Position numbers and translations under genes: made by a program. The notes under the pieces were generated by a model. It had not been told where the DNA came from and did not search any database. It was given only the letters and a program-made list of their open reading frames with translations. From positions 406,612 through 446,646 of the forward strand of contig CAJINV010000025.1 of NCBI GenBank assembly GCA_905178155.1: 40,035 bases of DNA, written 5' to 3'. Source of the stretch: Amoebophrya sp. A120 (Eukaryota; Protista; Dinoflagellata). Each line of letters starts with the position of its first letter. Position 1 is the stretch's first letter. Of this stretch, positions 17,816-40,035 are shown one piece after another.

Positions 17816-20800
17816 ATGGCCGCCGCCAAAGCGAATGCGAACATGGCCCGACTACACAAGCACAGCGCGACTCTTCTCGGGGACCGCCTGTACGCAGCGG
17901 TGCGGATATGAAATGTAAAAATGTCTGGGTCTGGAAGAATGCAACATTTGTGATGCAGGTTTTCCATGACCCATGAGGCCGCGCATGCAGGACCTAGCAT
18001 GACAGATTCTGCGCGATCTCTCTCATGCCTTTCCTGCATGAGAAACTCCCTCCCGACTTGGTCAAAACTGGACGACTTTTGGTAATCATGCAACACAGAT
18101 TTTTGCATGCTTCAGATTTAGCATGACAAGTTGCATTCTTCCAGACCCAGACATTTTTACTATTGATAGCGGAGTGGCGACGGCAAATCCACGACATGCT
18201 CCTCCTCCTTACCTATGAACTGCAAAAGTGTCCTGCTGCTCGTATAAATGCATGACAAATCCCCTCAGCATGAGAAATAAAATTTGTAATGCGGATTTAC
18301 ATTGGGAAAAAAATTTGTAATGCACGACTGCAATACGAGTACTGTCACTGTGCGATACTTTTGCACAGGATATTACCCCGCCGATTTTTCAAGAAGCTGA
18401 AAAGCGGGACGAAACAGCTTTTCCTAAATTCTCGGTCACCGGCTGCGGCAGCGCGAGTAGGCGCGATATCTCCTCCCGACAGCGACGATCGGTTGCCACC
18501 GACACTGTACCGGGTGAAGAATATTGCATTTTCCGAGAAGCCGGGGAAAACCAGCAGGGAGGCGAGTGCGGCCGTGGGTAAAAATAGAGAGCAGGGTCCA
18601 GGAGCAAATTCCTATACCACCGATAGCACACCCACAGGTGATCCTTCCCCGCTATCGACTGTAAAAATGTCTGGGTCTGGAAGGGCCAAACTTGTGCTGC
18701 TGTATTTGGATGCTAAAAAAACCTGTATTGCATGACCAGCAAGAGGATTCAAATTTGGCTACGCGGAGACGGCATTTGTCTTTGTCATGCTGGATGCGCA
18801 TAGATAAGCGCTCAAAAAATCTGTGATGCTATGGCATACATCACAGACATCATGACTCATGAAAAATGTGCATGATAAAGTTGTGCTGTTCCAGACCCAG
18901 ACATTTTTGCATTTGATACCCGCCCGACGGAGCCAACATTTGTTCGGCACCGGTACTATTTTCCATCCCTGTCTACGGGCGGAACAAAAACACGCTGCTT
19001 CCGAGCACGCCCGTCGCGGTAGGAAATTGCAAATCTCTCTGAGTCTGGAAGAATGCAGAAGTTAGTCATACTGCTTTTGCATGACCGAGGACGGCTTGTA
19101 TGCAGGAGCAGGCGGCAAAATTTTTTTGTTTTCTCGACAGGGCATCTCATTAGCATTCCTGCATGAGAAATTCCCGTATTTGGGTGACAAAAGGTCGTCG
19201 TCGTGGATGAGAGATTTTTGTCTGTGCAACTGCTTTAGCTGGCCAGGCATGACAGATTTTTGTGATGTCTCTTAAAATGCGCGTCTTCACAAGTTTGAGT
19301 ATTCGCGCTTCAGACCTCCCAGATGACAGATTTGCAATGCATCGGCGTTCCTGAAACCCAACCAGGTGGTGCAGGTGTTGCCGCACGCGCTAAGGATCTG
19401 TGATGAGGAGCTAACGGAGGACAATTTGAGGAACTACAACTCGGGCATCGCCGGTTTGGAAAATGCAAAGTGGAAGCAGTTTTGGCTGGACACGCACCGA
19501 GGAGCAGGAGCCGCAGCCGCTTCCTCCTCTCCGTCCAGCTCGTCCTCTGTGGCGCCTGTAAATGTAATGAAGGACCACGGGGGCCAGCAAATGAGTTGTG
19601 AACAAGGAGGGAAAAAAAACCTCCCTGTGCAGACAGGCCACGAACCCGAAGTGGTAGAAGCAAGGACGAGCGAAACATCGTCAAGACGGGAAGGTGCAGA
19701 AACGCTTTCTCACCCCGCCCTCACTCCACCGTCTCCGTGGATCCCGGTTCGCATCGCGCCGGACGCCATGGAGGTGCTTACCATGCCGAACACGGTCGGC
19801 GGCATGACACTATCACGAGGAAAAACTCCCCCTCCCCATAATCTTCAAACGGAAAGTTTTCAGTACTGCTCTGTGGCGAGAGATCAGCTTTGTCCACGCA
19901 AGAAGGCAAGCAAAGATAAAGATAAAGTAATTTGCTCGCTTGCTTTTCTTGAGCGTACAGGGCAGGCGCAGCCTTACGGCGACGGACAAGCGCGGCGCGG
20001 ACGCGCCGCCGCTTCGCAGTGATCGAGAGGCGGCGAGGCCGGTGCGCTTCGATGGTCGTGCGTGCATTCCTGCAATCTTCGTCGCGGGGCAAAATTTTAC
20101 CCGTGCAGGCCGGCATTTTGCTGGCGGTTTTTTTGCCCGCGCTTTTTTGCCGTCGTGATGTTTTTAGCGAGGCTAATCTGGCGACCCTGCTTTCGCTGTG
20201 CCTTAGTAGCAAACCTACTTGAGGAGCCTACTCGCAGGGCCGTGGGAGCGAACCCACCCGAGCGCTCCACTTGCAGCGCCTTCAGAGCGAACCCGGCCGA
20301 GCAAGCCAAAAACGCAACAACAACGCAACAACAACTCCACAACAACTCCACAACAACTCCACAACAACTCGACAGCAACTCGACAGCAACTCGACAACAA
20401 CGCAACAACAACTCGACAACAACGCAACAACTACGCAACAACTACGCAACAACAACGCAACAACAACGCAACAACAACGCAACAACAACGCAACAACAAC
20501 GCAACAACAACGCAACAACAACCCAACAACAACCCAACAACATACAACTCAGCCCGTAGCCAAAAAAAAAGCCTGGCAAGGGCGGGAAAGCGTGCGCGCT
20601 CTCCTTTTTTTATCCACCCAAAAAAGTAAAAGGAGAGATATTCCGGGCGGTCCAACAAAAGCAGAGATATTCGGGGCGGTCCGGCAGAAGTGGAGACATT
20701 CGGAGCGGTCAAGCAGAAGGAGAGATATTCGGGGTGGTCAGGCGAAAGCGGAGATATTCGGAGCGGTCAGGCAAAAGTAGAGATATTCGCAGCGGCCGAA

Positions 20801-23800
20801 CCAGTAAAAGTAGAGATATTCGGGGCGGTCAAACAAAAGTAGAGATATTCGGGGCGGTCAGGCAAAAGTGGAGATGGGCGGTCGAGCAAGAGTAGAGAGA
20901 TTCGGGGCGGTCAGGCGAAAGCGGAGATACTCGGAGCGGTCAAGCAAGAGGAGAGATACTCGCAGCGGCCGAACAAGTAAAAGTAGAGATATTCCGGGCG
21001 GTCAAACAAAAGTAGAGATATTCGGGGCGGTCGGGCAAAAGTGGAGATATTCGGAGCGGTCAAGCAAAAATAGAGATACTCGCAGCGGCCGAACGCGTAA
21101 GCGTAGAGATATTCCGCGCGGTCGAACAAAAGTAGAGATATTCGGGGCGGTCATGCAAAAGTGGAGATATTCGGAGCGGTCAAGCAAGAGTAGAGATATT
21201 CGGGGCGGTCAGGCGAAAGCGGAGAAATTCGGAGCGGTCAAGCAAAAGTAGAGATATTCGCAGCGGCCGAACCAGTAAGAGTAGAGATATACCGGGCGGC
21301 CAAAGAAAAGTAGAGATATTCGGGGCGGTCGGGCAAAAGTGGAGATATTCGGAGCGGTCAGGCAAATAAAAGCAGAGATATTCGGGGCGGTCAGGCGAAA
21401 GCGGAGATATTCGGAGCGGTCAAGCAAAATTAGAGATATTCGCAGCGGCCGAACAAGTAAGAGGAAAGATATGCCGGGCGGTCAAACAAAAAGCAGAGAT
21501 ATTCGGGGCGGTCAGGCAAAAGCGGAGATATTCGGAGCGGTCAAGCAAGAGTAGAGATATTCGGGGCGGTCAGGCGACAGCGGAGATATTCGGAGCGGTC
21601 AAGCAAAAGTAGAGATATTCGCAGCGGCCGAACAAGTAAAAGTAGAGACATTCCGGGTGGTCATTCAAACAACAGTAGAGATATTCGGGGCGGTCAGGCA
21701 ACAGTGGAGATATTCGGAGCGGTCAAGCAAAAGCAGAGATACTCGGGGCGGTCAGGCGACAGCGGAGATATTCGGAGTGGTCAAGCAAGAGTAGGGATAT
21801 TCGCAGCGGCCGAACAAGTAAAAGTAGAGACATTCCGGGCGGTCAAACAAAAGAAGAGATATTCGGGGCGGTCAGGCAACAGTGGAGATATTCGGAGCGG
21901 TCGAGCAAAAGTAGAGACATTCGGGGCGGTCAGGCGAAAGCGGAGATATTCGGAGCGGTCTTCGGGGGGGGCGGTCAGGCAAAAGTGGAGATATTCGGAG
22001 CGGTCAAGCAAGAGTAGAGATATTCGGGGCGGTCAGGCGAAAGCGAAGATACTCGGAGCGGTCAAGTAAAAGTAGAGATATTCGCAGCGGCCGAACAAGT
22101 AAAAGTAGAGATATTCCGGGCGGTCAAACAAAAGAAGAGATATTCGGGGCGGCCCGCCAGGCAAAAGGGGAGATATTCGGAGCGGTCAAGCAAAATTTGA
22201 GATATTCGGGGCGGTCACGCGAGCGCGGAGATATTCGGAGCGGTCAAGCAAAAGTAGAGATATTCGCAGCGGCCCAACAAGTAAGAGTCGAGATATTCCG
22301 GGCGGTCAAACAGCAGCAGAGATATTCGGGGCGGTCAGGCAAAAGTGGAGATATTCGGAGCGGTCAAGCAAAAGTAGAGATATTCGGGGCGGTCAGGCGA
22401 GAGCGGAGATATTCGGAGCGGTCAAGCAAAAGGAGAGATATTCGCAGCGGCCGAACAAGTAAAAGTAGAGATATTGCGGGCGGTCCGTCAAACAAAGTTA
22501 GAGATATTCCCTCGGGGCGGTCAGGCAAAAGTGGAGACATTCGGAGCGGTCAGACAAAAGTAGAGATATTCGGGGCGGGCAGGCGACAGCGGAGATATTC
22601 GGAGCGGTCAAGCAACAGTAGAGATATTCGCAGCGGCCGAACAAGTAAAAGGAGAGAGATTCCGGGCGGTCAAGCAAAAGTAGAGAAATTCGGGGCGGTC
22701 AGGCAAAAGCGGAGATATTCGGGGCGGTCAGGCAAAAGTAGAGATATTCGGGGCAAGCGTAGAGATATTCGCAGCGGCCGAACAAGTAAAAGTAGAGATA
22801 TTCCGGGCGGTCAAACAAAAGGAGAGATATTCGGGGCGGTCAGGCAAAAGTGGAGATATTCCGAGCGGCCAAGCAAAAGGAGAGACTTTCAGGGCGGGCA
22901 GGCGAAAGAGGAGATATTCGGAGCGGTCAAGCAAAAGTAGAGAGATTCGCAGCGGCCGAACGAGTAAAAGGAGAGATATTCCGGGCGGTCAGACAAAAGT
23001 AGAGATATTCGGGGCCGTCCGGCAAAAGTGGAGATATTCGGAGCGGTCAGGCAAAAGTAGAGATACTCGGGGCGGTCAGGCGAAAGCGGCGACATTCGGA
23101 GCGGTCAAGCAAAAGTAGAGATATTCGCAGCGGCCGAACAAGTAAAAGTAGAGAGATTCCGGGCGGTCCGTCAAACAAAAGTAGAGATATTCGGGGCGGT
23201 CACTCACTCAGGCAAAAGGGGAGATATTCGGAGCGGTCAGGCAAAAGTAGAGATATTCGGGGCGGTCAGGCGAAGGCGGAGATATTCCTTCGGAGCGGTC
23301 AAGCAAAAGTCGAGATATTCGCAGCGGCCGAACAAGTAAAAGTAGAGATATTCCAGGCGGCCACTCAAACAAAAGGAGAGATATTCGGGGCGGTCAGGCA
23401 AAAGCGGAGATATTCGGAGCGGTCCAGCAAAAGTAGAGATATTCGGGGCGGGCAGGCGACAGCGGAGATATTCGGAGGGAGCGACCAAGCAAAAGTAGAG
23501 ATATTCGCAGCGGCCGAACAAGTAAAAGCTGAGATATTCCGGGCGGTCAAACAAAAGTAGAGATATTCGGGGCGGTCAGGCAAATAAAAGCGGAGATATT
23601 CGGAGCGGTCAGGCAAGAGTAGAGATATTCGGGGCGGTCAGGCGACGGCGGAGATATTCGGAGCGGTCAAGCAAAAGTAGGGATATTCGCAGCGGCCGTC
23701 CGAACAAATAAAAGTAGAGATATTCCGGGCGGTCAGACAAGTGTAGAGATATTCGGGGCGGTCAGGCAAAAGTGGAGACATTCGGAGCGGTCAGGCAAAA

Positions 23801-26800
23801 GCAGAGATATTCGGGGCGGGCAGGCGAAAGCGGAGATATTCGGAGCGGTCAAGCAAAAGTAGAGATATTCGCAGCGGTCGAACGAGCAAAAGTAGAGATA
23901 TTCCGGGCGGTCAAACAAAAGCAGAGATATTCGGGGCGGTCAGGCAAAAGTGGAGACATTCGGAGCGGTCAAGTAAAAGTAGGGACAGATACTCGGGGCG
24001 GTCAGGCGACAGCGGAGATATTCGGAGCGGTCAAGCAAAAGTAGAGATATTCGCAGCGGCCGAACCCGTAAAAGTAGAGATATTCCGGGCGGTCAAACAA
24101 AAGTAGAGACATTCGGGGCGGTCAGGCAAAAGTGGAGATATTCGGAGCGGCCAAGCGACCGTAGATATATTCGGGGCGGTCACGCGGAAGCGGAGATATT
24201 CGGAGCGGTCAGGCAAGTCAAGAGCAGAGATATTCGCAGCGGCCGAACAAGTAAAAGCTGAGACATTCCGGGCGGTCAAACAAAAGTAGAGATATTCGGG
24301 GCGGTCAGGCAAAAGTGGAGATATTCGGAGCGGTCAGGCAAAAGTAGAGATATTCGGGGCGGTCAGGCGAAAGCGGAGATATTCGGAGCGGTCAGGCAAA
24401 AGTAGAGATATTCGGGGCGGTCAGGCGAAAGCGGAGATATTCGGAGCGGTCAAGCAAAAGTAGAGATATTCGCAGCGGCCGTCTCCGAACAAGTAAAAGT
24501 AGAGAGATTCCGGGCGGTCAAACAAAAGTAGAGATATTCGGGGCGGTGAGGCAAAAGTGGAGATATTCGGAGCGGTCAGGCAAAAGTAGAGATATTCGGG
24601 GCGGTCAGGCGAAAGCGGAGATATTCGGAGCGGTCAAGCAAAAGTAGAGATATTCGCAGCGGCCGTCTCCGAACAAGTAAAAGTAGAGAGATTCCGGGCG
24701 GTCAAACAAAAGTAGAGATATTCGGGGCGGTGAGGCAAAAGTGGAGATATTCGGAGCGGTCAGGCAAAAGTAGAGATATTCGGGGCGGTCAGGCGAAAGC
24801 GGAGATATTCGGAGCGGTCAAGCAAAAGTAGAGATATTCGCAGCGGCCGTCTCCGAACAAGTAAAAGTAGAGAGATTCCGGGCGGTCAAACAAAAGTAGA
24901 GATATTCGGGGCGGTGAGGCAAAAGTGGAGATATTCGGAGCGGTCAGGCAAAAGTAGAGATATTCGGGGCGGTCAGGCGAAAGCGGAGATATTCGGAGCG
25001 GTCAAGCAAAAGTAGAGATATTCGCAGCGGCCGTCTCCGAACAAGTAAAAGTAGAGAGATTCCGGGCGGTCAAACAAAAGTAGAGATATTCGGGGCGGTG
25101 AGGCAAAAGTGGAGATATTCGGAGCGGTCAGGCAAAAGTAGAGATATTCGGGGCGGTCAGGCGAAAGCGGAGATATTCGGAGCGGTCAAGCAAAAGTAGA
25201 GATATTCGCAGCGGCCGTCTCCGAACAAGTAAAAGTAGAGAGATTCCGGGCGGTCAAACAAAAGTAGAGATATTCGGGGCGGTGAGGCAAAAGTGGAGAT
25301 ATTCGGAGCGGTCAGGCAAAAGTAGAGATATTCGGGGCGGTCAGGCGAAAGCGGAGATATTCGGAGCGGTCAAGCAAAAGTAGAGATATTCGCAGCGGCC
25401 GTCTCCGAACAAGTAAAAGTAGAGAGATTCCGGGCGGTCAAACAAAAGTAGAGATATTCGGGGCGGTGAGGCAAAAGTGGAGATATTCGGAGCGGTCAGG
25501 CAAAAGTAGAGATATTCGGGGCGGTCAGGCGAAAGCGGAGATATTCGGAGCGGTCAAGCAAAAGTAGAGATATTCGCAGCGGCCGTCTCCGAACAAGTAA
25601 AAGTAGAGAGATTCCGGGCGGTCAAACAAAAGTAGAGATATTCGGGGCGGTGAGGCAAAAGTGGAGATATTCGGAGCGGTCAGGCAAAAGTAGAGATATT
25701 CGGGGCGGTCAGGCGAAAGCGGAGATATTCGGAGCGGTCAAGCAAAAGTAGAGATATTCGCAGCGGCCGTCTCCGAACAAGTAAAAGTAGAGAGATTCCG
25801 GGCGGTCAAACAAAAGTAGAGATATTCGGGGCGGTGAGGCAAAAGTGGAGATATTCGGAGCGGTCAGGCAAAAGTAGAGATATTCGGGGCGGTCAGGCGA
25901 AAGCGGAGATATTCGGAGCGGTCAAGCAAAAGTAGAGATATTCGCAGTGGCCGAACGAGTAGCAGCAGAGATATTCCGGGCGGTCAGACAGCAGTAGAGA
26001 TATTCGGGGCGGTCAGGCAAAAGCGGAGATATTCGGAGCGGTCAAGCAAGAGGAGAGATATTCGGGGCGGTCACGCGAAAGCGGAGACATTCGGAGCGGT
26101 CAGGCAAAAGTAGAGATATTCGCAGCGGCCGAACAAGTAAAACTATCTAGACAGAGATATTCCGGGCGGTCGAACAAAAGTAGAGACATTCGGGGCGGTC
26201 AGGCAAAAGTGGAGATATTCGGAGCGGTCGAGCAAAAATAGAGATATTCGGGGCGGTCAGGCGAAAGCGGAGATATTCGGAGCGGTCAAGCAAAAGTAGA
26301 GACTGATATTCGCAGCGGCCGAACAAGTACAAGTAAAAGTAGACATATTCCGGGCGGTCGAACAAAAGTAGAGATATTCGGGGCGGTCAGGCAAAAGCGG
26401 AGATATTCGGGGCGGTCAAGCAGAAGTAGAGATATTCGGGGCGGTCAGGCGAAAGCGGAGATATTCGGAGCGGTCAAGCAAAAGGAGAGATATTCGCAGC
26501 GGCCGAACAAGTAAAAGTAGAGACTGATACTCCGGGCGGTCAAACAAAAGTAGAGACATTCGGGGCGGCCAAGCAAAAGCGGACACATTCGAAGCGGTGA
26601 AGCAAAAGCAGAGATATTCGGGGCGATCACGCGAGAGTGGAGATATTCGGAGCGGTCGAGCAGAAGTAGAGTCAGTCCGTTGATTTTGCGTTCCAATGAA
26701 TGTGGGGCCATTTCTGGAAGACCAGGCCCCAGTTTCAGAAGCTTGCTATTGAGTAAAGGGGAGGGGGGTCTTTCATTTTAACATTTGCCCAAGCTGCACT

Positions 26801-29800
26801 ACGTCGACGGGATGATCAAAGCGGAGCACTTTTTTCCTGCAGGGGTAGAATTCAATCAGGAGGGGCTTCCACTTCGTGGGGCGGCACCCTCCGCGCATGT
26901 CGTCTTCGAGCCCGCCGCCCTGCAGTATCAAGTGCAAATATGTCTGGGTCTGGAAGAGTGTAGACTTGTCACGCAGATTTTCCATGACCCACAATGTCTG
27001 GAATGCGGGACCTAGCATGACAGACTCTGCGAGGTCTCTGTCATGCCTATCCTCCATGAGAAACTCCCTCCCAAGTTGGTCGAAAGTGGACTGCTTTGGG
27101 CTCTCATGCAACACAGATCTTTGCATGATTCACATTTAGAAGCATGATAAGTTGCAATCTTCCAGACCCAGACATATTTGCAATCCATATGCAGATGAGC
27201 GACGCGATCTACGCCCGGCTGCCCTTCACGTATCAAATGTAAAAACGTCTGGGTCTGGAAACTTGTGATGCTGGGTGGCGTATCATGAGGAGGCCACAAG
27301 AGCTGGCCAAGCATGACAAGTTTTTGAGCTCCTAGGTGTTGCCTATTCCGCATGACAAACTGCGTTTCTGCATGACAGAAAAATGAGGCTCTTGGGTAAC
27401 ATGCATGACAGATTTAAGAGTCATGCCAGACAAGCATGACGAACACACATTCTTCCAGACCCAGACATTTATTTTTACATTTGATATCACGCCCATGCAC
27501 GCCATCTACCAGACCGTGCTTGACTTTGTCGAGCGTAAGTTCTTCCCCGCACAAAGAAGTCAGGAACCACCCGCGTCGGCCCCCGGCGGCGGTAGTGCAA
27601 TTGTAACAGGAAGCACTACAACTGCTACTACTGCAGCTAGTACCCCCGCCGCGAGTACGAGAACTGCCACGACCCCGCCGCCCGTCTGGTCAGAGAAGCT
27701 CCGCAGAAAAGACAGCAGAGCGGCTGGCGTAGACGCTACCGGCTCCGAGCACCAGAGCCAGATGACTTATGATCTTCTACATGAAAGTCTCACGGAAGCG
27801 CAGCGGTCCTGGCTTTCCTTCCGAGTGTGGTTTGACGACATGGCGGCGGAATACTACGACGGCGTGATTGCGTATGGAAAGAAAAAAATTCGTCGCAGTC
27901 CCTAATACTATAATCTTGCAACCTGTGCATGACAGGAGATTCACCTGGCGTTACAGCTTTTTCTATGTATCATTCCGCAAACACAAGGGGAGTCGCGTAT
28001 GAAGTCTAGTCTTGCCTTGTGATGCTGCATTTCTACCCATGATGAGAGACAGCTTCGTGTTAGAAGAATCCGTATGAGTCGTGATCCTGATCGTGACAAA
28101 TTTTGTTTCGTGCATATTGCGGGGCCGGGCCGGTCGCGTGGTAGTCCTGGTCAAACGCAGTACATTCTGCAGCGCGCGCCCGGAAATGTGCCCGAGCGAA
28201 TGGAGATTACTGAGGAGCTATCAAATGTAAAAATGTCTGGGTCTGGAAGAATCCGAAATTTCTTATGCTGTTTTTGCATGACACAGAATGTCTGTCATGG
28301 AAGCCCTAGCATCACAGATCTTGCCTTCCTGATACCTATTCCGCATGACAAATGCCCTCCACGCGTAGCACAAACCGGACTCCTTTTGCTGGTCATGCAC
28401 TACAGAATTTTTTAGAGTCCAAAGTTAGCATCACAAGTTCCAACCTTCCAGACCCACACATTTTTGCAATCCATAGGAGCAGATTGTTTTTGACCAGGAC
28501 AGAAAGCAGCGGCACAAATTCTTCGGAAGGATCGGTCTCTTTTTCACGTTTTATCAAATGCAAAGATGTCTGGGTCTGGAAGAATGCAACTTGTGATGCT
28601 GCGTTTCGATTCCAAAAAAATCTGTATTGCATGAGCAGAAAAGGAAATGCAATTTTTGCTACGCGGAGCGGGCATTTGTCAGGCGGAATAGGCACCGAGA
28701 AGCCCTCAAAAAATCTGTGATGCTGGGGCACGCATCGCAGACGTCATGGCTCATGCAAAACGTGCGTGACAAGTCTTAGAACCTTCCAGACCCAGACACT
28801 TTTGCACTTGATACTTTCTGCTACTCGACAGTGGCCTACTTGCGGAATCGGCGGAGCCGAAACATGGCCGTGCGGGACTGCGTACGGCAAGAAAGGGCAA
28901 AAATGCAGGACGAAGAGGATCAACATCTTGTAGCGGACAGAAGACGCGACCGCACGGAGTGGAACGACAAAAACGGCGAAACACTCACAAAAGCGGATCG
29001 TGGCAATGACCCAGAAGCAGTAGAGCGTATCCCTCGCAAACATAATCGATCTGGATCTGAGAGATTGTAGATGGATTCTAATTCTTGCAGAAGTTTCTAA
29101 ATGCAGCTTTTCAGTGCGCCATGAAACGGTCGCTCAACTTGAGGACCGCTAGTGGGCAAGACCTTGTTTATTTCCACTCATGATCACGCAGCACGGAAGA
29201 TTTTTGTGTCCTGACGCTGCAAGGGGAATGTCACAGGACTGGATGAACATCTTTCAGACAGCCCGGGAAGTACTAGATGTTTGCAATGCATAGAACAAGA
29301 GGTCTATGGAGAGAAAAAAGTTTGTCACAGTCACTAAGTTGCAGGTTTTGCATTGCAAATTTTTTTTGCATCACAACTTCTTCTTGTATTGCAGAAACAC
29401 TAGGGAAATCCCTTATGAAGTGTGGCTGTGATGCATTTTTACGCATGACAGACAATTTTGTCTTGCAAAAATGCCCATGGGTGATCGTGGCGAACTTTTT
29501 TCTTTTCATAAGGTCCTGCACTTCGACCAGTTTCCAGCTCTTCTCCGGCCCCCGGTGGAAGCGGATCCATTTTACCTGAGCGAGATATGAATTGCAAAAG
29601 TGTCTGGGTCTGGAAGAATGGCAGACTTGTCATGCAGGTTTTCCATGACCCATCAGGTCTGGTATGTAGGACATAGCATGACAGATTCAGATTCTGTGAG
29701 AGCTCTATCATGCCTATCCTGCATGAGAAACTGCCTCGCGATTAGGTCAAAAGTGGACAGCTTGTGGTAATCATGCAACACAGGTGTCTTTTTACATGAT

Positions 29801-31673: not shown

Positions 31674-34600
31674 ATGAGTGCTGTGGAATCGACAGTACCC
31701 GCCAACAAGAGCTGCAAAATTAAGCCGCTCCCGCAAGGTTTGCGTCGCACGAATGCGAAAAAGCCGCCGCCGCCCGCTGCAAAGCATAACCTGTCGCTCC
31801 ACTATCCTGTGCAAAAGTATCGCACTCGTAGTAATTGCAGTCATGCATTACCAATCTCGTTCCCAAGGCAAATCAGCATGACAAATTGCATTTGTCATGC
31901 TGAGGGAATTTGTTATGCAATTTATACTAGTACGATACTTTTGCAGTTCATATCCACGTGACTCTGCCAACTACTACGAGGAGGAACATCACTGCCCCCG
32001 CTGCACAAAATCAACAACCGGCGACTTCGGTTGTCGTGCCGGCCGCGGCTGAAACTCAAACACAAACTACAGCTGTTGTGAACAATAATAATCAAACTAC
32101 GACTACTTCTTCTACTACTACTGCAACGACGAGTACGGCTTTCTCGAAGGCGACATCCAAGGCTGCCGGAGGGCCACCAAGTCTTGGAACGGTAGCTGCA
32201 CCCGCCCAACCCGAAGTAGAACTACCCGCCGAGCCCATTCCCGCCGTCTCCAAGGCCCGGGGCCCGCCTCCGCCGGGAGATGAAAACAGTACTAAACCGT
32301 CTACTTCCGACGGAGCAGCTGCACTAGGTGTAGACAACGACGACCTGCAGGCGCTACCCAAGGCGGTGCCGAAGGCGGGCTATCAACTGTAAATATCGCT
32401 CTGGGTCTGGAAGATTAAAACTTATCATGCTCAATCTGAATGATGCAAAAATCTGTGATATTGCGTGAGTACCAAAAGCCGTCCGCTTTTGACCAAATTG
32501 AGAGGGAGTTCCTCATGCAGGAAACGCATGATAGAGACCGCAAAGAATCTGTCATGCTAGGTCTCGCATTGCAGACCTCATGGCTCATGCAAAACGTGCA
32601 TGGCAAGTCTCAGAATCTTCCAGACTTAGACATATTTGCACTGCATACGGGCGGTTTGGTCGCGAAGCTCGCCGCGGTGGGCGTGAACGTGGAGCAAGCT
32701 GTATGCAAGAGAAAAAAGAAAAACTGTGTAAGCGTGACTTTGTGTTGCACACGCACGCAAAGCAATTCTCACTTGCTATGCTCAACATGCATTTTTACAG
32801 GCTAAAGTAGTCTCATATGTGTTTACTTTTATTTCATCGCGCACTATAATTTCTTGCGCACTAGACAGGCTTTCCATTACCTTTTTATTTCACTCGGGGT
32901 CCCTTTTGACCCCGAATAGATTTGAAAAGCCGTCCATGCCGTGCGGGTTCGAAAGGGGGTGCCTGGGTTCAAATTTTTATGGTTTTTGCTTGACAAACTC
33001 AATTATCTCAAGCTTTTCTTATTTCGCACCTGTTTCCGTCACCTCCTTAATTCATTCGGGGTCTCTTTTGACCCCGAATAGATTTGGTCCGCCCATACCG
33101 TGCGGGTTCGAAAGGGAATGCCTGGCTTCAAGTTTTTAGGGTTTTTGCTTGACAAACTCAATTATCTCAAGCTTTTCTTATTCCGCACCTGTTTCCGTCA
33201 CCTTCTTATTTAATTCGGGGTCTCTTTTGACCCCGAATAGATTTAAGAATCTGTCCATACCGTGCGGGTTCGAAAGGGAATGCCTGGCTTCAAGTTTTTA
33301 GGGTTTTTGCTTGACAAACTCAATTATCTCAAGCTTTTCTTATTCCGCACCTGTTTCCGTCACCTTCTTATTTAATTCGGGGTCTCTTTTGACCCCGAAT
33401 AGATTTAAGAATCTGTCCATACCGTGCGGGTTCGAAAGGGAATGCCTGGCTTCAAGTTTTTAGGGTTTTTGCTTGACAAACTCAATTATCTCAAGCTTTT
33501 CTTATTCCGCACCTGTTTCCGTCACCTTCTTATTTAATTCGGGGTCTCTTTTGACCCCGAATAGATTTAAGAATCTGTCCATACCGTGCGGGTTCGAAAG
33601 GGAATGCCTGGCTTCAAGTTTTTAGGGTTTTTGCTTGACAAACTCAATTATCTCAAGCTTTTCTTATTCCGCACCTGTTTCCGTCACCTTCTTATTTAAT
33701 TCGGGGTCTCTTTTGACCCCGAATAGATTTAAGAATCTGTCCATACCGTGCGGGTTCGAAAGGGAATGCCTGGCTTCAAGTTTTTAGGGTTTTTGCTTGA
33801 CAAACTCAATTATCTCAAGCTTTTCTTATTCCGCACCTGTTTCCGTCACCTTCTTATTTAATTCGGGGTCTCTTTTGACCCCGAATAGATTTAAGAATCT
33901 GTCCATACCGTGCGGGTTCGAAAGGGAATGCCTGGCTTCAAGTTTTTATGGTTTTTGCTTGACAAACTCAATTATCTCAAGCTTTTCTTATTCCGCACCT
34001 GTTTCCGTCACCTTCTTATTTCATTCGGGGTCTCTTTTGACCCCGAATAGATTTAAGAGTCTGTCCATACCGTGCGGGTTCGAAAGGGGGTCCCTGGGTT
34101 CACGTTTTTATGAGTTTTGCTTGACAAACTCAATTTTCTGAGGCTTTTCTTAGTCCGCATCTGTTTCCGTCACCTTCTTATTTCATTCGGGGTCCCTTTT
34201 GACCCCGAATAGATTTGGTCCGCCCATACCGTGCGGCTTCAAAAAGGGATGTCTGGGCTCAAGTTTTTGTAGTTTTTGCTTGACAAACTCAATTATCTCA
34301 AGCTTTTCTTATTCCGCCCCTGTTTCCTTCCCCTTCCTATTCCATTCGGGGTCCATTTTGACCCCGAGTAGATCTGAAAATCCCTCCATACCGTGCGGGT
34401 TCGAAACGGGATGCCTGGGCTCAAGTTTTTATAGTTTTTGCTTGACAAGCTCAATCTTCTGAAGCTTTTCTTCTTCCGCACCTGTTTCCGTCCCCTTCCT
34501 ATTTAATTCGGGGTCCATTTTGACCCCGAGTAGATCTCGAAATCCCTCCATACTGTGCGGGTTCGAAAAGGGATGTCTGGGCTCAAGTTTTTGTAGTTTT

Positions 34601-37600
34601 TGCTTGACAAACTCAATTATCTCAAGCTTTTGTTATTCCGCCCCTGTTTCCGTCGCCTTCTTATTGCGCTCGGGGTCTTTTGTGACCCCGAATAGATTTG
34701 AAAAGCCCACCACGCCGTGCGGGTTCGAAAGGGGATGTCTGGATTTGAGTTTTCGTGATAGTTTTTAGTATTGCTATAGTATACTACGCTAACACAATTT
34801 CATTCCTGGATGAGCTAACGAGGTAGGGACCGTGCAGCAGCAGCTCGGAGATGGCTCGTCTGGCGCGGGGGCCACCGGACGACAAGGACAAGATCCATCT
34901 GCGCAGCAGGAAGCGGACCGTAATACCAGCGCAGCAGCCGATATCACGGGAAAAAAGTGTTACAGTTACACATTTGTTGGAGTTTCTGCATCGCAAAGTT
35001 GCTCGACATGGCCAAGAAAACCTGTGATGCGCAGACTACAAGGGAAAACACGAGTGAAATGAGGCTGGCAACCATTTCCTGCATGACAAAGGTTGTCTGT
35101 CTTGCTGGTCTTCCATCAGAGTGTGTAACTGTAACATTTTTTTCGCAGGATAGCCGAGGACAACCTGGCGTTGTTTCGGAATATCACCAGACAGGTCACC
35201 ATATCCTGTGCAAAAGTATCGCACTCGTATAAATGCAAGTCATGCATTACAAATCTTGTTCCCAAGGCAAATCTGCATTACAAATTTTATTGGGTAAAAA
35301 GGACAAATCCCAAGAAGACTAGCAAAATCTCAAGAAGAAATGGACAAATCTCAAGAAGAAATGGGCAAATCTTAGGGTTTGGGTTTGGGGTCTAGGGTTT
35401 GGGGTTTCTGGTCGTCGGCCAGGGCAGCCGCCGCCGGCCGGCCGGCCGGCGGCGGCTGCCCTGGCCGACGACTCTCTCTTCTCGTTTTTGGAAGGTGGCG
35501 GCCCCGCGCCCTGCCCGCCTTCGTGTTTGTTCTGTCGCTTCCTTGGGGTTCTCCTGGTTGGCGCTGGCCAGCTCCTTGGCCGGCGGGCCTCGGGATTGGG
35601 GCACACAGCGCAGCCGCGCAGAACTTGGCGGCTTGGTCCCTCACCCGGGTCCCCCTCGCAGGGAGACCGCGGACGGGCCGCGGGGTGTCCTTGTGTATTT
35701 TTCCAGGCCAGGATGCCGTCGTGCATCATGTTATGCATGATGGAGTGTTGCTTGCAAAAAAACACAGTAGATTCAGAAGAACCGAATGCCCGCGAATAGC
35801 TTTGACGTGGCCCCGCACACCGTCGTGCATAACGTTCTCGCTCGCCAAAACATCTCCTTCTCTCCGCCCTCTGCTTTCCATCTGCTTTTCGCCTTCTCTC
35901 TGCCGTCTTCTTTCGATCTGCTTTTCGCCTTTTCTTTGCCCTCTTCCTCGATTCGATTCCAACGTAGAATAATGCGTTTCCACAGGCAGGAAGTTTTCAG
36001 TGAAAACTTCCTGTCTGTGAACTATACCATGGTGTATAAAGTTCTCCCTGAAAAATCCGTAACCATTCTTCTTGAGATTTTTAACAAGTCAAGCAATTTG
36101 AAAATTAAGCATTTTCTTTTTGGGGTGGGTTCTTCTTGAGCTTTTCTTCTTGAGATTTGTCCACTTTAACCAATTTTATTTCTCATGCTGAGGAAATTTG
36201 TCATGCATTTATACGAGTGCGATACTTTTGCAGTCCATACACCAGACGCGCCACGTCGGGGCTATGACCTGCTCAAACGTTACAACCTCAAACGTTACTC
36301 AATAGGATTTGGGTTTTGTATTGCATGACGAGCATGACAGACTCGGACAGCATTCCATTTTCTGCAATACAAATTTCGCCAAATTGTAGTGCGGATTGGG
36401 GCGACTCCAGAACTTGTCATGCGCATCAATCCTACGAGAGTCGGCTACTACGTAATGCACTTCTTGCAGCACACATTCCAGATTCTATGATAACCGATTT
36501 GAGATTGTAACACCTGAGCAGGTTATAGGGGCTGTACAAGCATGAGGAGTGGCTGGCCCGGCTATCAAATGTAAAAGTGTCTGGGTCTGGAGGATTCTGA
36601 AACTTGTCATGCATATTTTGCATGAGTCGTGATGTCTGTGATGCATGCCCTGGCATCACAGATTTTTTCTGGGCTTCTTGATCTTGATGCCTAGTCCGCA
36701 TGACAAATGCCCTCTCTCCGAAGCAAAAAATACACTCATTTTGCTGCTCATGCAATGCAGGTTTCTTTGGAATCCAAATGCAGCATCACAAGTTGCATTT
36801 TTCCAGACCCAGACACTTTTGCACTCGATACCGGCGGCATGACGACAAGGTCCGACGGATCGAGGAAGAAAAGCGCCAGGCACGTATCCTGTGCAAAAGT
36901 ATCGTAAAAGACTTCTACGTAGAAATCGCATCACAAATAGAAGCGCAGCATGACAGCGATAGAACTTGTAATTCTGATTTAATACCTCGGGAAGAAGATT
37001 AACATTTGCAGCCACGCATGTTCGCGATGTATTATTGGAACGAGCTGTACGATAGTACTTTTGCAATGCATAGCCCGACGCGCGGAACGGTGGTACAATA
37101 ACGATCGTAACAGAGAGGGCCGCGCCAGAAGTCGGCGAAACGACTCGCGAGGACGCAGGAGCTACGGGCGGGGGAATAAAAAAGATGACCGGGACGACCA
37201 CCGGGACAAAAATGTGAGCAGGAGCAGGGTACGGCGATTGTCCAGTCGCGATCGTCGGGACTCACGAGGCGGAAAAGGACGGGACAGGTATACTGAAGAT
37301 AAAGCAAGAGAACTTTGTTTTTCTTCTTATAAAAACCGTATATTTATTGTCATGCCTAAAAGTAGAAAGAGAAAAAGAACCAGTCATGCGTGATCTCAAC
37401 TACTTCTACACTTAGAATTTGTACTACTTATCACAGAAGCAGCTACCGCGATACAACGGCCCGAACTACTGGTGCAAACTCCCGCCGTCGTGAGGAAGAT
37501 GACAGCAGGGATGACAACTACCACAACGACAACAAAAACCGCTGCTCCCGGAGTCGTGGACGTGGTGGTCGTGGTGGCGGTGTGAATGGCAATGACAACG

Positions 37601-38794
37601 GTAAAAAAAAGGATAAAAAGCGAAACTACTCCGAGGACGAAAGCGAGAAGAATTACTCTACCAGCAAGAAGAACAAGAAACCTGCTCCCTCTTCGTCCAT
37701 ATGCATTGCAAAAATGTCTGCGTCTGGAAGATTGGTGCGGTTTGTCATGCTTGTCTGGCATGACCAAAAAATTTGTGATGCGTGTCAACGAAGAGACCCT
37801 TTTGCCTGTCATGCAAAAACGCAGTTTGTCATGCGAGAAACGCAATACAAGGAAGTGCAGATATTTCTCATGCTTGGCTGTGCATTACAGAGCATTCACT
37901 ATTCCCAACGCAGCATTACAAGTTTCCAGACCCAGACACTTTTGCATTTGATAGTCCACCGACGAGAGCAAGAAAAGAAGTGGCACTGGTGCTCCCGCGG
38001 ACAGGTAGAAGGATCTTAAGGAAAACTGTTTCTGGGTTTTATTTAACTCTGTCATGCAGAAATTGAACGTAGACAACGGCCCAATTCTAAGCATAATGTC
38101 GCTTGTCAACATCCGATGACTAGAGAATAACAAAAACCCTAGGAAAAAACTCGTGCACTATCAAATCGCTCCTGTGTACAAATACCTGTGCGTCCTGGCA
38201 AACACTTTTGCAGTCATGATCTAATGCTGAGAGCGCTTGAAGCGCTATAATCCGCCGAAAAAAAGAACAAAACTCTGGAAATTTCAACTTCTCTTCTGGG
38301 TATTAAACTAACAGGTCGACCAAAAAGCACAAGAAGGAAAAAGTAAGCAGGACATCAACATCTGACAGCCGGGAACAGAGTAACAGCAAGCGGAAGGGCC
38401 GTGGGGGAGACAAGAAGCAGAGTTTATTGTGAGGAAACGTTTTCGTGATCCCTCCTCCGCTTTTTGAAAAGGTGGTCTAGTACAACTTGTGAAAATTTGT
38501 GATGCTGATTTATTATCTGTGGCCACAAAGCGCACGCCTGTCCGTCTTGCACGAGGTTCCTGAGTTGTAAACCGCAAACATCCAGCATACACAAGTTTGC
38601 GTTTGAGTACGGGGAAGTAGATGGGGGATCAGCATTTTTGATTTTGATACAGCAGCAAGCAGAAAAACGACAGTCGAGGCCGAGATGACAGTCGAGGACG
38701 GGACGACAGTCGAGGCCGAGACGACAGTCGAGGCCGAGATGACAGTCGAGGACGAGATGACAGTCGAGGACGGGACGACAGTCGTGGGAGATAA
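31674..38794 (+). CDS. Hypothetical low-complexity protein ~544 aa (T/P/A-rich N-terminal half, R/S/D/K-rich C-terminal half ending in DSRGRD repeats). Exons 31674-31802, 31958-32380, 32653-32701, 34818-34941, 35158-35201, 36245-36262, 36533-36562, 36836-36884, 37078-37287, 37437-37699, 37959-38004, 38315-38424, 38655-38794
   Basis: 1635 nt open after removing 10 TIR elements (+5 nt each) and two GT-AG introns. Start codon uncertain, as the frame is open back to ~31596. Confidence 0.75.
31803..31952. mobile_element. Family C TIR element acting as intron
   Basis: TATCCTGTGCAAAAGTATCGCACTCGTA...TACTAGTACGATACTTTTGCAGTTCATA; repeat TCCAC. Confidence 0.92.
32381..32647. mobile_element. Family A TIR element acting as intron
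   Basis: Family A TIRs; repeat CGGGC. Confidence 0.9.
32702..34812. mobile_element. Family D-like element expanded to 2.1 kb by a satellite, acting as intron
   Basis: TATGCAAGAGAAAAAAG...ACACAATTTCATTCCTGGATG; flanks AGCTG/AGCTA; removal gives in-frame EQA-DEVGTVQQQ. Confidence 0.72.
32865..34770. repeat. 162-bp (159-bp variant) tandem satellite, ~12 copies, each with hairpin ATTCGGGGTC-N6-GACCCCGAAT
   Basis: GACAAACTC marker at 32992, 33151, 33313, 33475, 33637, 33799, 33961, 34123, 34282, 34444 (variant) and 34606. Confidence 0.96.
34942..35152. mobile_element. Family D TIR element acting as intron
   Basis: TATCACGGGAAAAAAGTGTTACAGTTACA...TGTAACTGTAACATTTTTTTCGCAGGATA; repeat GCCGA. Confidence 0.93.
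35202..36239. mobile_element. Family C TIR element acting as intron, hosting a nested element
   Basis: TATCCTGTGCAAAAGTATCGCACTCGTATAAATGCA...TGCATTTATACGAGTGCGATACTTTTGCAGTCCATA; repeat CACCA. Confidence 0.92.
35292..36171. mobile_element. Nested non-autonomous element with 9-bp TSD (Mutator-like)
   Basis: TSD AATTTTATT (35283-35291, 36172-36180). TIR GGGTAAAAAGGACAAATCCCAAGAAGA / TCTTCTTGAGATTTGTCCACTTTAACC. Subterminal TCTCAAGAAGA repeats. Confidence 0.88.
36263..36527. mobile_element. Family E TIR element acting as intron
   Basis: TATGACCTGCTCAAACGTTACAACCTCAAA...TTTGAGATTGTAACACCTGAGCAGGTTATA; repeat GGGGC. Confidence 0.9.
36563..36830. mobile_element. Family A TIR element acting as intron
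   Basis: Family A TIRs; repeat CCGGC. Confidence 0.93.
36885..37072. mobile_element. Family C TIR element acting as intron
   Basis: TATCCTGTGCAAAAGTATCG...TACTTTTGCAATGCATA; flanks GCACG/GCCCG. Confidence 0.83.
37288..37436 (+). other. Putative canonical GT-AG intron
   Basis: ACAG|GTATAC...TCACAG|A; AT-rich; joins two RS-rich ORF pieces in frame. Confidence 0.65.
37700..37953. mobile_element. Family A TIR element acting as intron
   Basis: Family A TIRs; repeat GTCCA. Confidence 0.92.
38005..38314 (+). other. Putative canonical GT-AG intron
   Basis: ACAG|GTAGAA...CTAACAG|G; removes an in-frame TAG and continues K/R/S-rich coding. Confidence 0.62.
38425..38649. mobile_element. Degenerate family B element acting as intron
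   Basis: TATTGTGAGGAAA..CCCTCCTCC...GGGGGATCAGCATTTTTGATTTTGATA with B-type interior; flanks GAGTT/CAGCA; the +5 rule restores the frame. Confidence 0.65.
38669..38791 (+). repeat. 18-bp coding tandem repeat, ~7 copies, encoding DSRGRD
   Basis: GAC AGT CG. GG. (C/A)G. GA(C/T); all variation between copies is synonymous in this frame. Confidence 0.9.
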
Positions 38795-38817
38795 AAAGAC
38801 ACTGCATCTTCAGCATT

Positions 38818-38985
38818 TATCCTGTGCAAAGTATCGTACTCGTGAAAGGTAAGAATTGCAATGATGCATGGCCAAACTTTTTTCCATATGCAATTCACAA
38901 TGGCAAAGAACGGAAGAACTCCATTTGTCATGCTGTAGCAAAAATGCAATTCCTATTAGCACCTACGACACTTTTGCCATCCATA
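38818..38985. mobile_element. Family C element, degenerate, just downstream of the stop codon
   Basis: TATCCTGTGCAAAGTATCGTACTCG...TACGACACTTTTGCCATCCATA; no matching flank repeat. Confidence 0.65.
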
Positions 38986-39788
38986 AGCGGTGTACAACCA
39001 GCACAATCTCGACGTCCAGAACTCGTTTGCACAATCTCGGGCCGCTCGAGACGACCGAACGACCAACTACACCTTTTTTCCAGAAGAAGTAGAAACACGA
39101 TTAGTTCTGTGCCGGTTGCATCGAAGAAGATGGAAGCAGGTCTCACCGATAATTGCGTGAAGATCTCATATGCAAATCGGCCATTAGCTAAGTTACCCGG
39201 AAGAGAATTATTCAACAGAGATTTTTTCAACAAGGAAAAGTTTTGTTGGATTGGCGACTACACCTCGATTTTTTCATATCACTTTATTTCATCATCAAAC
39301 AACCAAAAGCACGATACAAGGTTTTCGACATCCACCAAATATACGACTAGTATTTCGAACCGCGACCATAACTTTGATGTCCGCGGCGCTGCTTGGTTTT
39401 GTCGAACCGAAGAAACCACAGCGGATGTATTCTTTTTGCTGCGAACTTCATGAAGCTGTCGAACGAATCAATGCACAATCCGCATGACAAAGTGCTTGCG
39501 GCAAGATGAGCTGTGGAATTTGTGTTGCAAAAAACCGCGATGTTCTAACCGGCCGGGGAAGAGAAATAGATGATGATGAGATGAAGATAAAAGTCGATGT
39601 GAGGACGAAGCGATGCTGTTCTTTTCTACCAATCAATTTTTGATGTTTGCCGAATCGAAAAGATGTTGATAAATTGCTGCTTGTGAAACTCAAACTGAGT
39701 GCTTGTCTTTTTTGAATTTGTATTGCGTTTTTCCGACATCACACGATGGAAATGTTGGAATGAAAATTTGAGTTTCAAACAACCACCA

Positions 39789-40035
39789 ACAAGTCTTAGA
39801 ACCGTCCAGACCGAGACACTTTTGCACTTGATGCGTTTTGCTACTCGACAGTGGCCTACTTGCGGAATCGGCGGAACCGAAACGTGGCCGTGCAGGACTG
39901 CATACGGCAAGAAAGGGCAAAAATGCAGGACGAAGAGGATCAACATCTTGTAGCGGACAGAAGACGCGACCGCACGGAGTGGAACGACAAAAACGGCGAA
40001 ACACTCACAAAAGCGGATCGTGGCAATGACCCAGA
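39789..40035 (+). repeat. Near-identical duplicate of 28769-29015 (right TIR of a family A element plus following exon), running off the window
   Basis: Same sequence at an offset of 11020 bp with a few substitutions. Confidence 0.93.

Follow-up and report, generated by a model that had tools for sequence, protein, structure and literature searches.

A gene of the dinoflagellate Amoebophrya sp. A120 raises the question of whether ordinary GT-AG introns can descend from introner elements, which bears on how new ordinary introns originate and on how Amoebophrya splices its introns, more than 60% of which are non-canonical. The gene lies in a stretch of 40,035 nt of contig CAJINV010000025.1 (the window, whose numbering is used throughout). 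Genes in the window are interrupted by introner elements, of which 31 were found, 150-330 nt long, with terminal inverted repeats (TIRs) starting TAT(C/G)-N6-AAAA and flanked by 5-bp repeats; the A120 signature given in section 11 of PMC7789003 is the same TIR and repeat pattern. Ten introns of the gene are TAT...ATA introners (four RNA-joined, six predicted) and two have GT-AG ends. The original prediction, made from the sequence, was that the latter may be introners inserted at ACAGG targets, taken over by the spliceosome and then free to lose their TIRs. The evidence leans modestly towards both being old introners with an NNAGG target duplication, eroded almost beyond recognition; this is a judgement on the pair and not a computed figure, and it is somewhat firmer for the second intron.

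Intron 1 (149 nt, 37288..37436, forward strand) and intron 2 (310 nt, 38005..38314, forward strand) both lie in phase 2 inside an Asp-Arg codon pair. Contigs of all four runs guessed to be RNA (X1-X4; one sample, one study) skip exactly these 149 and 310 nt from GT to AG with the frame restored, and DNA-like contigs traverse both introns without any difference; the raw-read runs X9 and X10 matched repeat pieces only and are uninformative here. Both are real GT-AG introns. When they are removed with the ten introner introns, what remains is one uninterrupted reading frame of about 570 codons, low in complexity. No Pfam family scored above cut-off in seven exons scanned, three of them from this gene; a protein search with exon 37438-37692 returned nothing at E<=0.001 among 261 candidates, which is weak evidence. 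As originally noticed, the two introns sit between 5-bp repeats. Those of intron 1 are ACAGG (37284..37288, forward strand) and ACAGA (37433-37437), matching at 4/5 positions; those of intron 2 match at 5/5, and their identity extends to 6 bp, ACAGGT (38001..38006, forward strand, and 38311-38316).

The ends that such an insertion would have depend on the cut register of introner introns, which can be read where the two repeats differ. Two non-canonical introner introns on the forward strand with decayed repeats, 38424..38653 (GAGTT/CAGCA) and 38817..38989 (GCATT/AGCGG), have unique joints at 38423>38654 and 38816>38990. There the first four bases of the left repeat stay in the transcript, together with the fifth base of the right repeat. 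Three further joints in RNA-guess contigs, all on the forward strand, are compatible with this register: one of 273 nt at an element with intact TIRs and a perfect repeat (36562..36834), one of 193 nt at an element whose body has diverged with its TIRs retained (36884..37076), and one of 259 nt at the introner between both GT-AG introns (37699..37957). The register is fixed: the left cut precedes its TIR by one base and the right cut follows its TIR by four, and an introner intron consequently reads N-TAT...ATA-NNNN. Its first base is base 5 of the left repeat and its last two bases are bases 3-4 of the right repeat, so that an NNAGG repeat gives G|TA...AG without any shift. The TAT of the TIR agrees with GTAT, the commonest donor of the host, and the T at +2 in all nine predominant A120 non-canonical motifs of Table S4 in PMC7789003 agrees with the register. 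The proposal that insertion at ACAGG creates G|TA..AG boundaries thus holds as geometry; the descent of the two window introns by this route is only probable. The RNA-joined introner at 38817-38989 lies downstream of the predicted stop of the gene in a contig of higher depth, and accordingly belongs to a 3' untranslated region or to another transcript.

A metagenome scan with the TIR as query yielded 133 related loci of about 673 kb unique sequence (the related assembly, with locus names of the form L0xx). They carry the introner families of the window at identities of up to 97%, and an exon of one of them has 87% identity to an Amoebophrya A25 protein; viral contigs scanned gave 0 matches, and none of the 133 loci is orthologous to the window gene. 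Among 404 oriented exonic introners, nine have GT-AG-compatible ends against 12.4 expected (p 0.39), and no targeting to ACAGG was seen; mismatched repeats were not seen drifting towards G or AG. GT-AG introner copies arise at the chance rate. Two loci appear to hold later stages. In L017:1731-1890, predicted boundaries with a perfect ACAGG repeat enclose TATGCAT at +2 and a family-1 body (38-41 bits), and an A-rich tail stands where the right TIR would be; judged by sequence, it would be the cleanest converted introner found and the predicted end state. At L027:1809-1995 a family-1 body (43-45 bits) is present, TIRs are absent and the repeats read AGAGG/ACAGA (3/5 match), so that the canonical ends of this intron may stem partly from later mutation. 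Removal of its 187 nt gives a gap-free alignment to the Amoebophrya A25 acyl-CoA oxidase, and it is a probable converted element. Inspected by hand, no other family body that interrupts an exon lacked both termini. L017 and L027 are both GT-AG (2/2), compared with 9/404 introners (p 0.0007, or 0.004 with two doubtful cases), a contrast biased towards the hypothesis because non-canonical introns lacking both ends are harder to find. Old non-canonical elements retain their ends (14-40 bits). Conversion likely happens, as a rare and passive process that is not targeted. A further candidate, L029 (z 4.1), was dropped since its alignment is equally good in either orientation. A comparison of TIR retention between genic (20/34) and non-genic (2/16) old elements was also rejected because the "non-genic" set turned out to include L017 and L027 along with genic elements from other families.

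The window introns themselves are far less clear. They may be ordinary, older spliceosomal introns, a possible but doubtful account in which ACAG|G and G|TA are the consensus of the genome (exon AG|GTAT ... ACAG|GT), the exon side reads ACAG because both introns fall in Asp-Arg codons, and the likeness of motif and ends is background. It can be judged against control introns predicted ab initio in the related loci, with only GT and AG imposed at first and intron-side weights added afterwards. There were 117 predictions; a high-confidence filter dropped 40, leaving 77, from which three mis-called introners and then introns too short for a given test were removed (67-74 left per test). GTA begins 97 of the 117 donors and GTAT 38 of the 77 high-confidence ones; 39 of the 77 acceptors end in ACAG. 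A caveat already attached to the original prediction was that CAG|G is normal splice context. On the exon side, where nothing was imposed, positions -2/-1 are A/G in 46%/60% and +1 is G in 49%. Both window introns fit this predicted consensus with GTAT/GTAG donors and ACAG acceptors, and both resemble the controls in length and GC content. That their interiors begin with TA is true of both and no more than chance, since it is the consensus of the host. Under the consensus, a four-base repeat match has a null probability of 0.039 and a five-base match one of 0.017, with a joint null of about 0.001 for both introns before allowing for the selection made by the reader of the sequence; their boundary repeats are partly chance. 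According to section 12 of PMC7789003, canonical introns common to A120 and A25 make up about one fifth of the A120 total. Among the predicted canonical introns of the related loci, the donors favour GTATA/GTATT over GTAAG, and the acceptors are A-rich with ACAG and lack a pyrimidine tract.

The motif that had been noticed in both introns, TGTCATGC, is indeed located at 37348 in intron 1 and at 38050 in intron 2, and is a weak clue. Motifs of this type, TGT(C/G)ATGC, are present in 463 of 542 introners and all but missing from exons; they also occur in 19 of the 77 controls, and still in 12 of 70 once seven controls with family bodies are removed (17% of ordinary-looking introns against a shuffle level of 1.2%). 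The motif is found on both strands and in families whose bodies are unrelated. Its recurrence might reflect a binding site for a common protein or old remnants scattered widely.

On the absence of paired TIRs the original prediction was right. Paired TIRs starting TAT were found in neither intron (TIR matrix scores 1.1/-0.3 and -8.4/-14.0, pairing score -2), and the end-to-end duplex energies of -3.6 (intron 1) and -7.4 kcal/mol (intron 2) lie near the median of the 77 controls (-5.8) as opposed to that of the 542 introners (-34). Likeness to the families was sought with family profiles (sets of 10 and 19, built from 542-591 elements in about 673 kb and not from the whole genome) and with an end-anchored alignment, whose z and p values come from 500 shuffles and whose ranks are taken against 67 controls in five settings. 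The 3' end of intron 1 (37394..37430, forward strand) weakly resembles a family-A-type right terminus, sharing 28 of 40 aligned columns with the end of element 32381-32647 at about 2 nt inside the expected register (z 4.3, p 0.006; 3, 6, 0, 5 and 0 controls scoring as high). The 5' end of intron 2 (38012..38071, forward strand) likewise weakly resembles an introner left terminus, with TGTCATGC at a family-typical distance, 6 nt inside the register (z 4.5, p 0.002; 15, 2, 0, 0 and 0 controls as high). A possible right terminus remnant of intron 2 (38275..38302, forward strand), aligned 8 nt inside the register, depends on the setting: 0, 1, 8, 43 and 57 controls score as high, and it ranks high in two settings only. 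Over the five settings the summed ends rank 1-11 for intron 1 and 0-13 for intron 2, and the scores of the intron 1 3' end and the intron 2 5' end fall mostly within the top 10% or so of the controls. Against the reading as ordinary introns, both window introns pair a boundary repeat with a high-ranking end likeness; the control with the top summed-end score is L017. It also argues against ordinary introns that the gene is of low complexity and that its other ten introns are all introners. Profile g17, which gave the best two-end score of intron 1, was dropped as half of a family-A-type element.

A number of results weigh against introner descent. An excess of boundary repeats is absent across 74 controls, where four were seen (four bases, all ACAG) and 2.97 expected by permutation (p 0.33). 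Alignment of the two introns to family consensuses, a check that had been suggested, gave no significant whole-length similarity to the 10 profiles (p 0.12 for each intron); five decayed window introners pass the same test with z 4-23. The best local profile matches, 5.9 and 7.1 bits, are bettered by 15 and 14 of the 77 controls, and blastn of both introns found no match besides short motifs, so that the hidden Markov models and blastn fail alike. The end-anchored test is post hoc, having been devised after the alignment of intron 2 was seen by eye. Its scores reach at most 17 bits, far below true elements, of which old ones score 14-40, and the stretches that resemble termini sit 2-8 nt away from the register. 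The control set is error-prone, with at least three of its 77 members mis-called introners, and the intron finder missed the boundaries of the window introns themselves. The nine recognisable GT-AG copies, a set itself found by its TIRs, do not have weaker TIRs than other introners (p 0.63-0.74; pairing score p 0.065-0.16), so the more decayed TIRs expected of elements with AGG repeats were not seen among them. Elements nested inside ordinary introns, found at L041 and L045, could leave the same traces. Should the window introns prove to be no more than ordinary ones, this would leave the register and the intermediate of the L017 type untouched.

Nesting is the basis of a further account, a rather improbable one, in which the canonical introns pre-existed and an introner inserted later near a splice site and decayed; the repeats would be consensus chance and only the interior element-derived. 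Besides L041 and L045, the displacement of the terminus-like stretches from the register fits it, as does the internal position of the family-C-like piece of intron 2. This piece, ACACTTTTGCAGTCATG at 38202-38218, was originally read as a remnant of the family; it is there and is not terminal, ending 92 nt inside the 3' repeat. It forms part of a possible nested family-C-type fragment (38135..38287, reverse strand; z 4.3, p 0.006 against 500 shuffles), which 7 of 31 long controls match in score. The putative inner elements lack a second flanking target duplication, the host intron would have measured about 14 nt were intron 2 to have introner termini on either side, and the boundary repeats are left unexplained. 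An internal inverted repeat at 38012-38222 of intron 2 was discarded as not significant (p 0.22).

If both window introns are old introners, as is somewhat favoured here, the route would begin with a 5-bp target duplication that by chance reads NNAGG and provides the introner with canonical G|TA...AG ends. These ends would suffice for ordinary spliceosomal recognition, selection would then no longer maintain TIR pairing, and near the splice sites the intron may gain small insertions along with A-rich, acceptor-like sequence. Introner splicing is perhaps already spliceosomal; no machinery would then "take over", and the one thing to be lost would be dependence on the hairpin. Section 6 of the review PMC11282704 takes Amoebophrya to exemplify an adaptation of the spliceosome. 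A bolder and on present evidence unlikely extension is that the host spliceosome splices introners with the TAT of the TIR as donor mimic and the acceptor counted four bases from the hairpin, and that every NNAGG insertion leaves this system, loses its TIRs and turns into an ordinary intron. Much of the strain-specific canonical set would come from this one-way sink, and L017, L027 and the window introns would be successive stages of erosion. The fixed register coincides with GT-AG and the same families occur with and without canonical ends, which provides a natural experiment on TIR dependence.

Several components of this route are already in print. The A120 introners described in PMC7789003, with inverted repeat motifs TAT + 7 nt + AAA, direct repeats of 3-5 nt and non-canonical introns of about 240 nt, are like those of the window; the two GT-AG introns differ in that their inverted repeats are gone. 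The same paper reports the direct and inverted repeat organisation in 15% of A120 canonical introns and canonical ends in 24.8% of strain-specific introns. Its text takes the place of the splice sites with respect to the hairpin to be variable or unknown; no description was found in it of a register that is fixed, of GT-AG copies that have lost their TIRs or of intermediates. In Micromonas, Aureococcus, Symbiodinium and Florenciella, introners obtain splice sites from the target-site duplication of an element resembling a miniature inverted-repeat transposable element, as here (PMC11282704, PMC9860276). Canonical sites are the rule there from insertion onwards, as far as these accounts go, whereas in Amoebophrya chance provides them for about 2% of insertions, the others being spliced non-canonically. 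Fungal introner-like elements are structured, repeated introns that erode until they are like ordinary ones (PMC3609843), as proposed here; they are described as canonical from the start, without any change of boundary type. A change of intron type has been proposed for euglenid intermediate introns (PMC4770533), where the case presented is a single intron with its structure still there and the eroded end state is not part of it. Repeats in A120 canonical introns, co-option of target-site duplications, fungal erosion and the proposed euglenid type change are thus published already. Among the published texts searched, Figs S19-S25 of PMC7789003 not included, no earlier report was found for Amoebophrya of introner cuts in a fixed register or of GT-AG intermediates in erosion.

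Further observations concern enlarged elements in the window. A third GT-AG intron suspected at 32701 was rejected because a family-5-type element with repeats AGCTG/AGCTA fits better. This introner (32702-34812) contains a 2-kb array of 162-bp units, and cutting it in the standard register (GT..CT) preserves the 570-codon frame at a predicted junction. The family-C-type introner at 35202-36239, with repeats CACCA/CACCA, is enlarged to about 1 kb by an inserted piece. The last 240 bases of the window (39797-40035) are nearly a copy of an element end plus exon at 28777-29015, in the gene at 28.8 kb, and transcript-like contigs of that gene also map to the window end, with a loose end at 39834. 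At 19810-26790, blocks of 11-bp and 29-bp satellites appear to be bordered by a left terminus of family-3 type near 19811 and, near 26780, by an end that looks like its match; read by eye, this region is perhaps a 7-kb intron.

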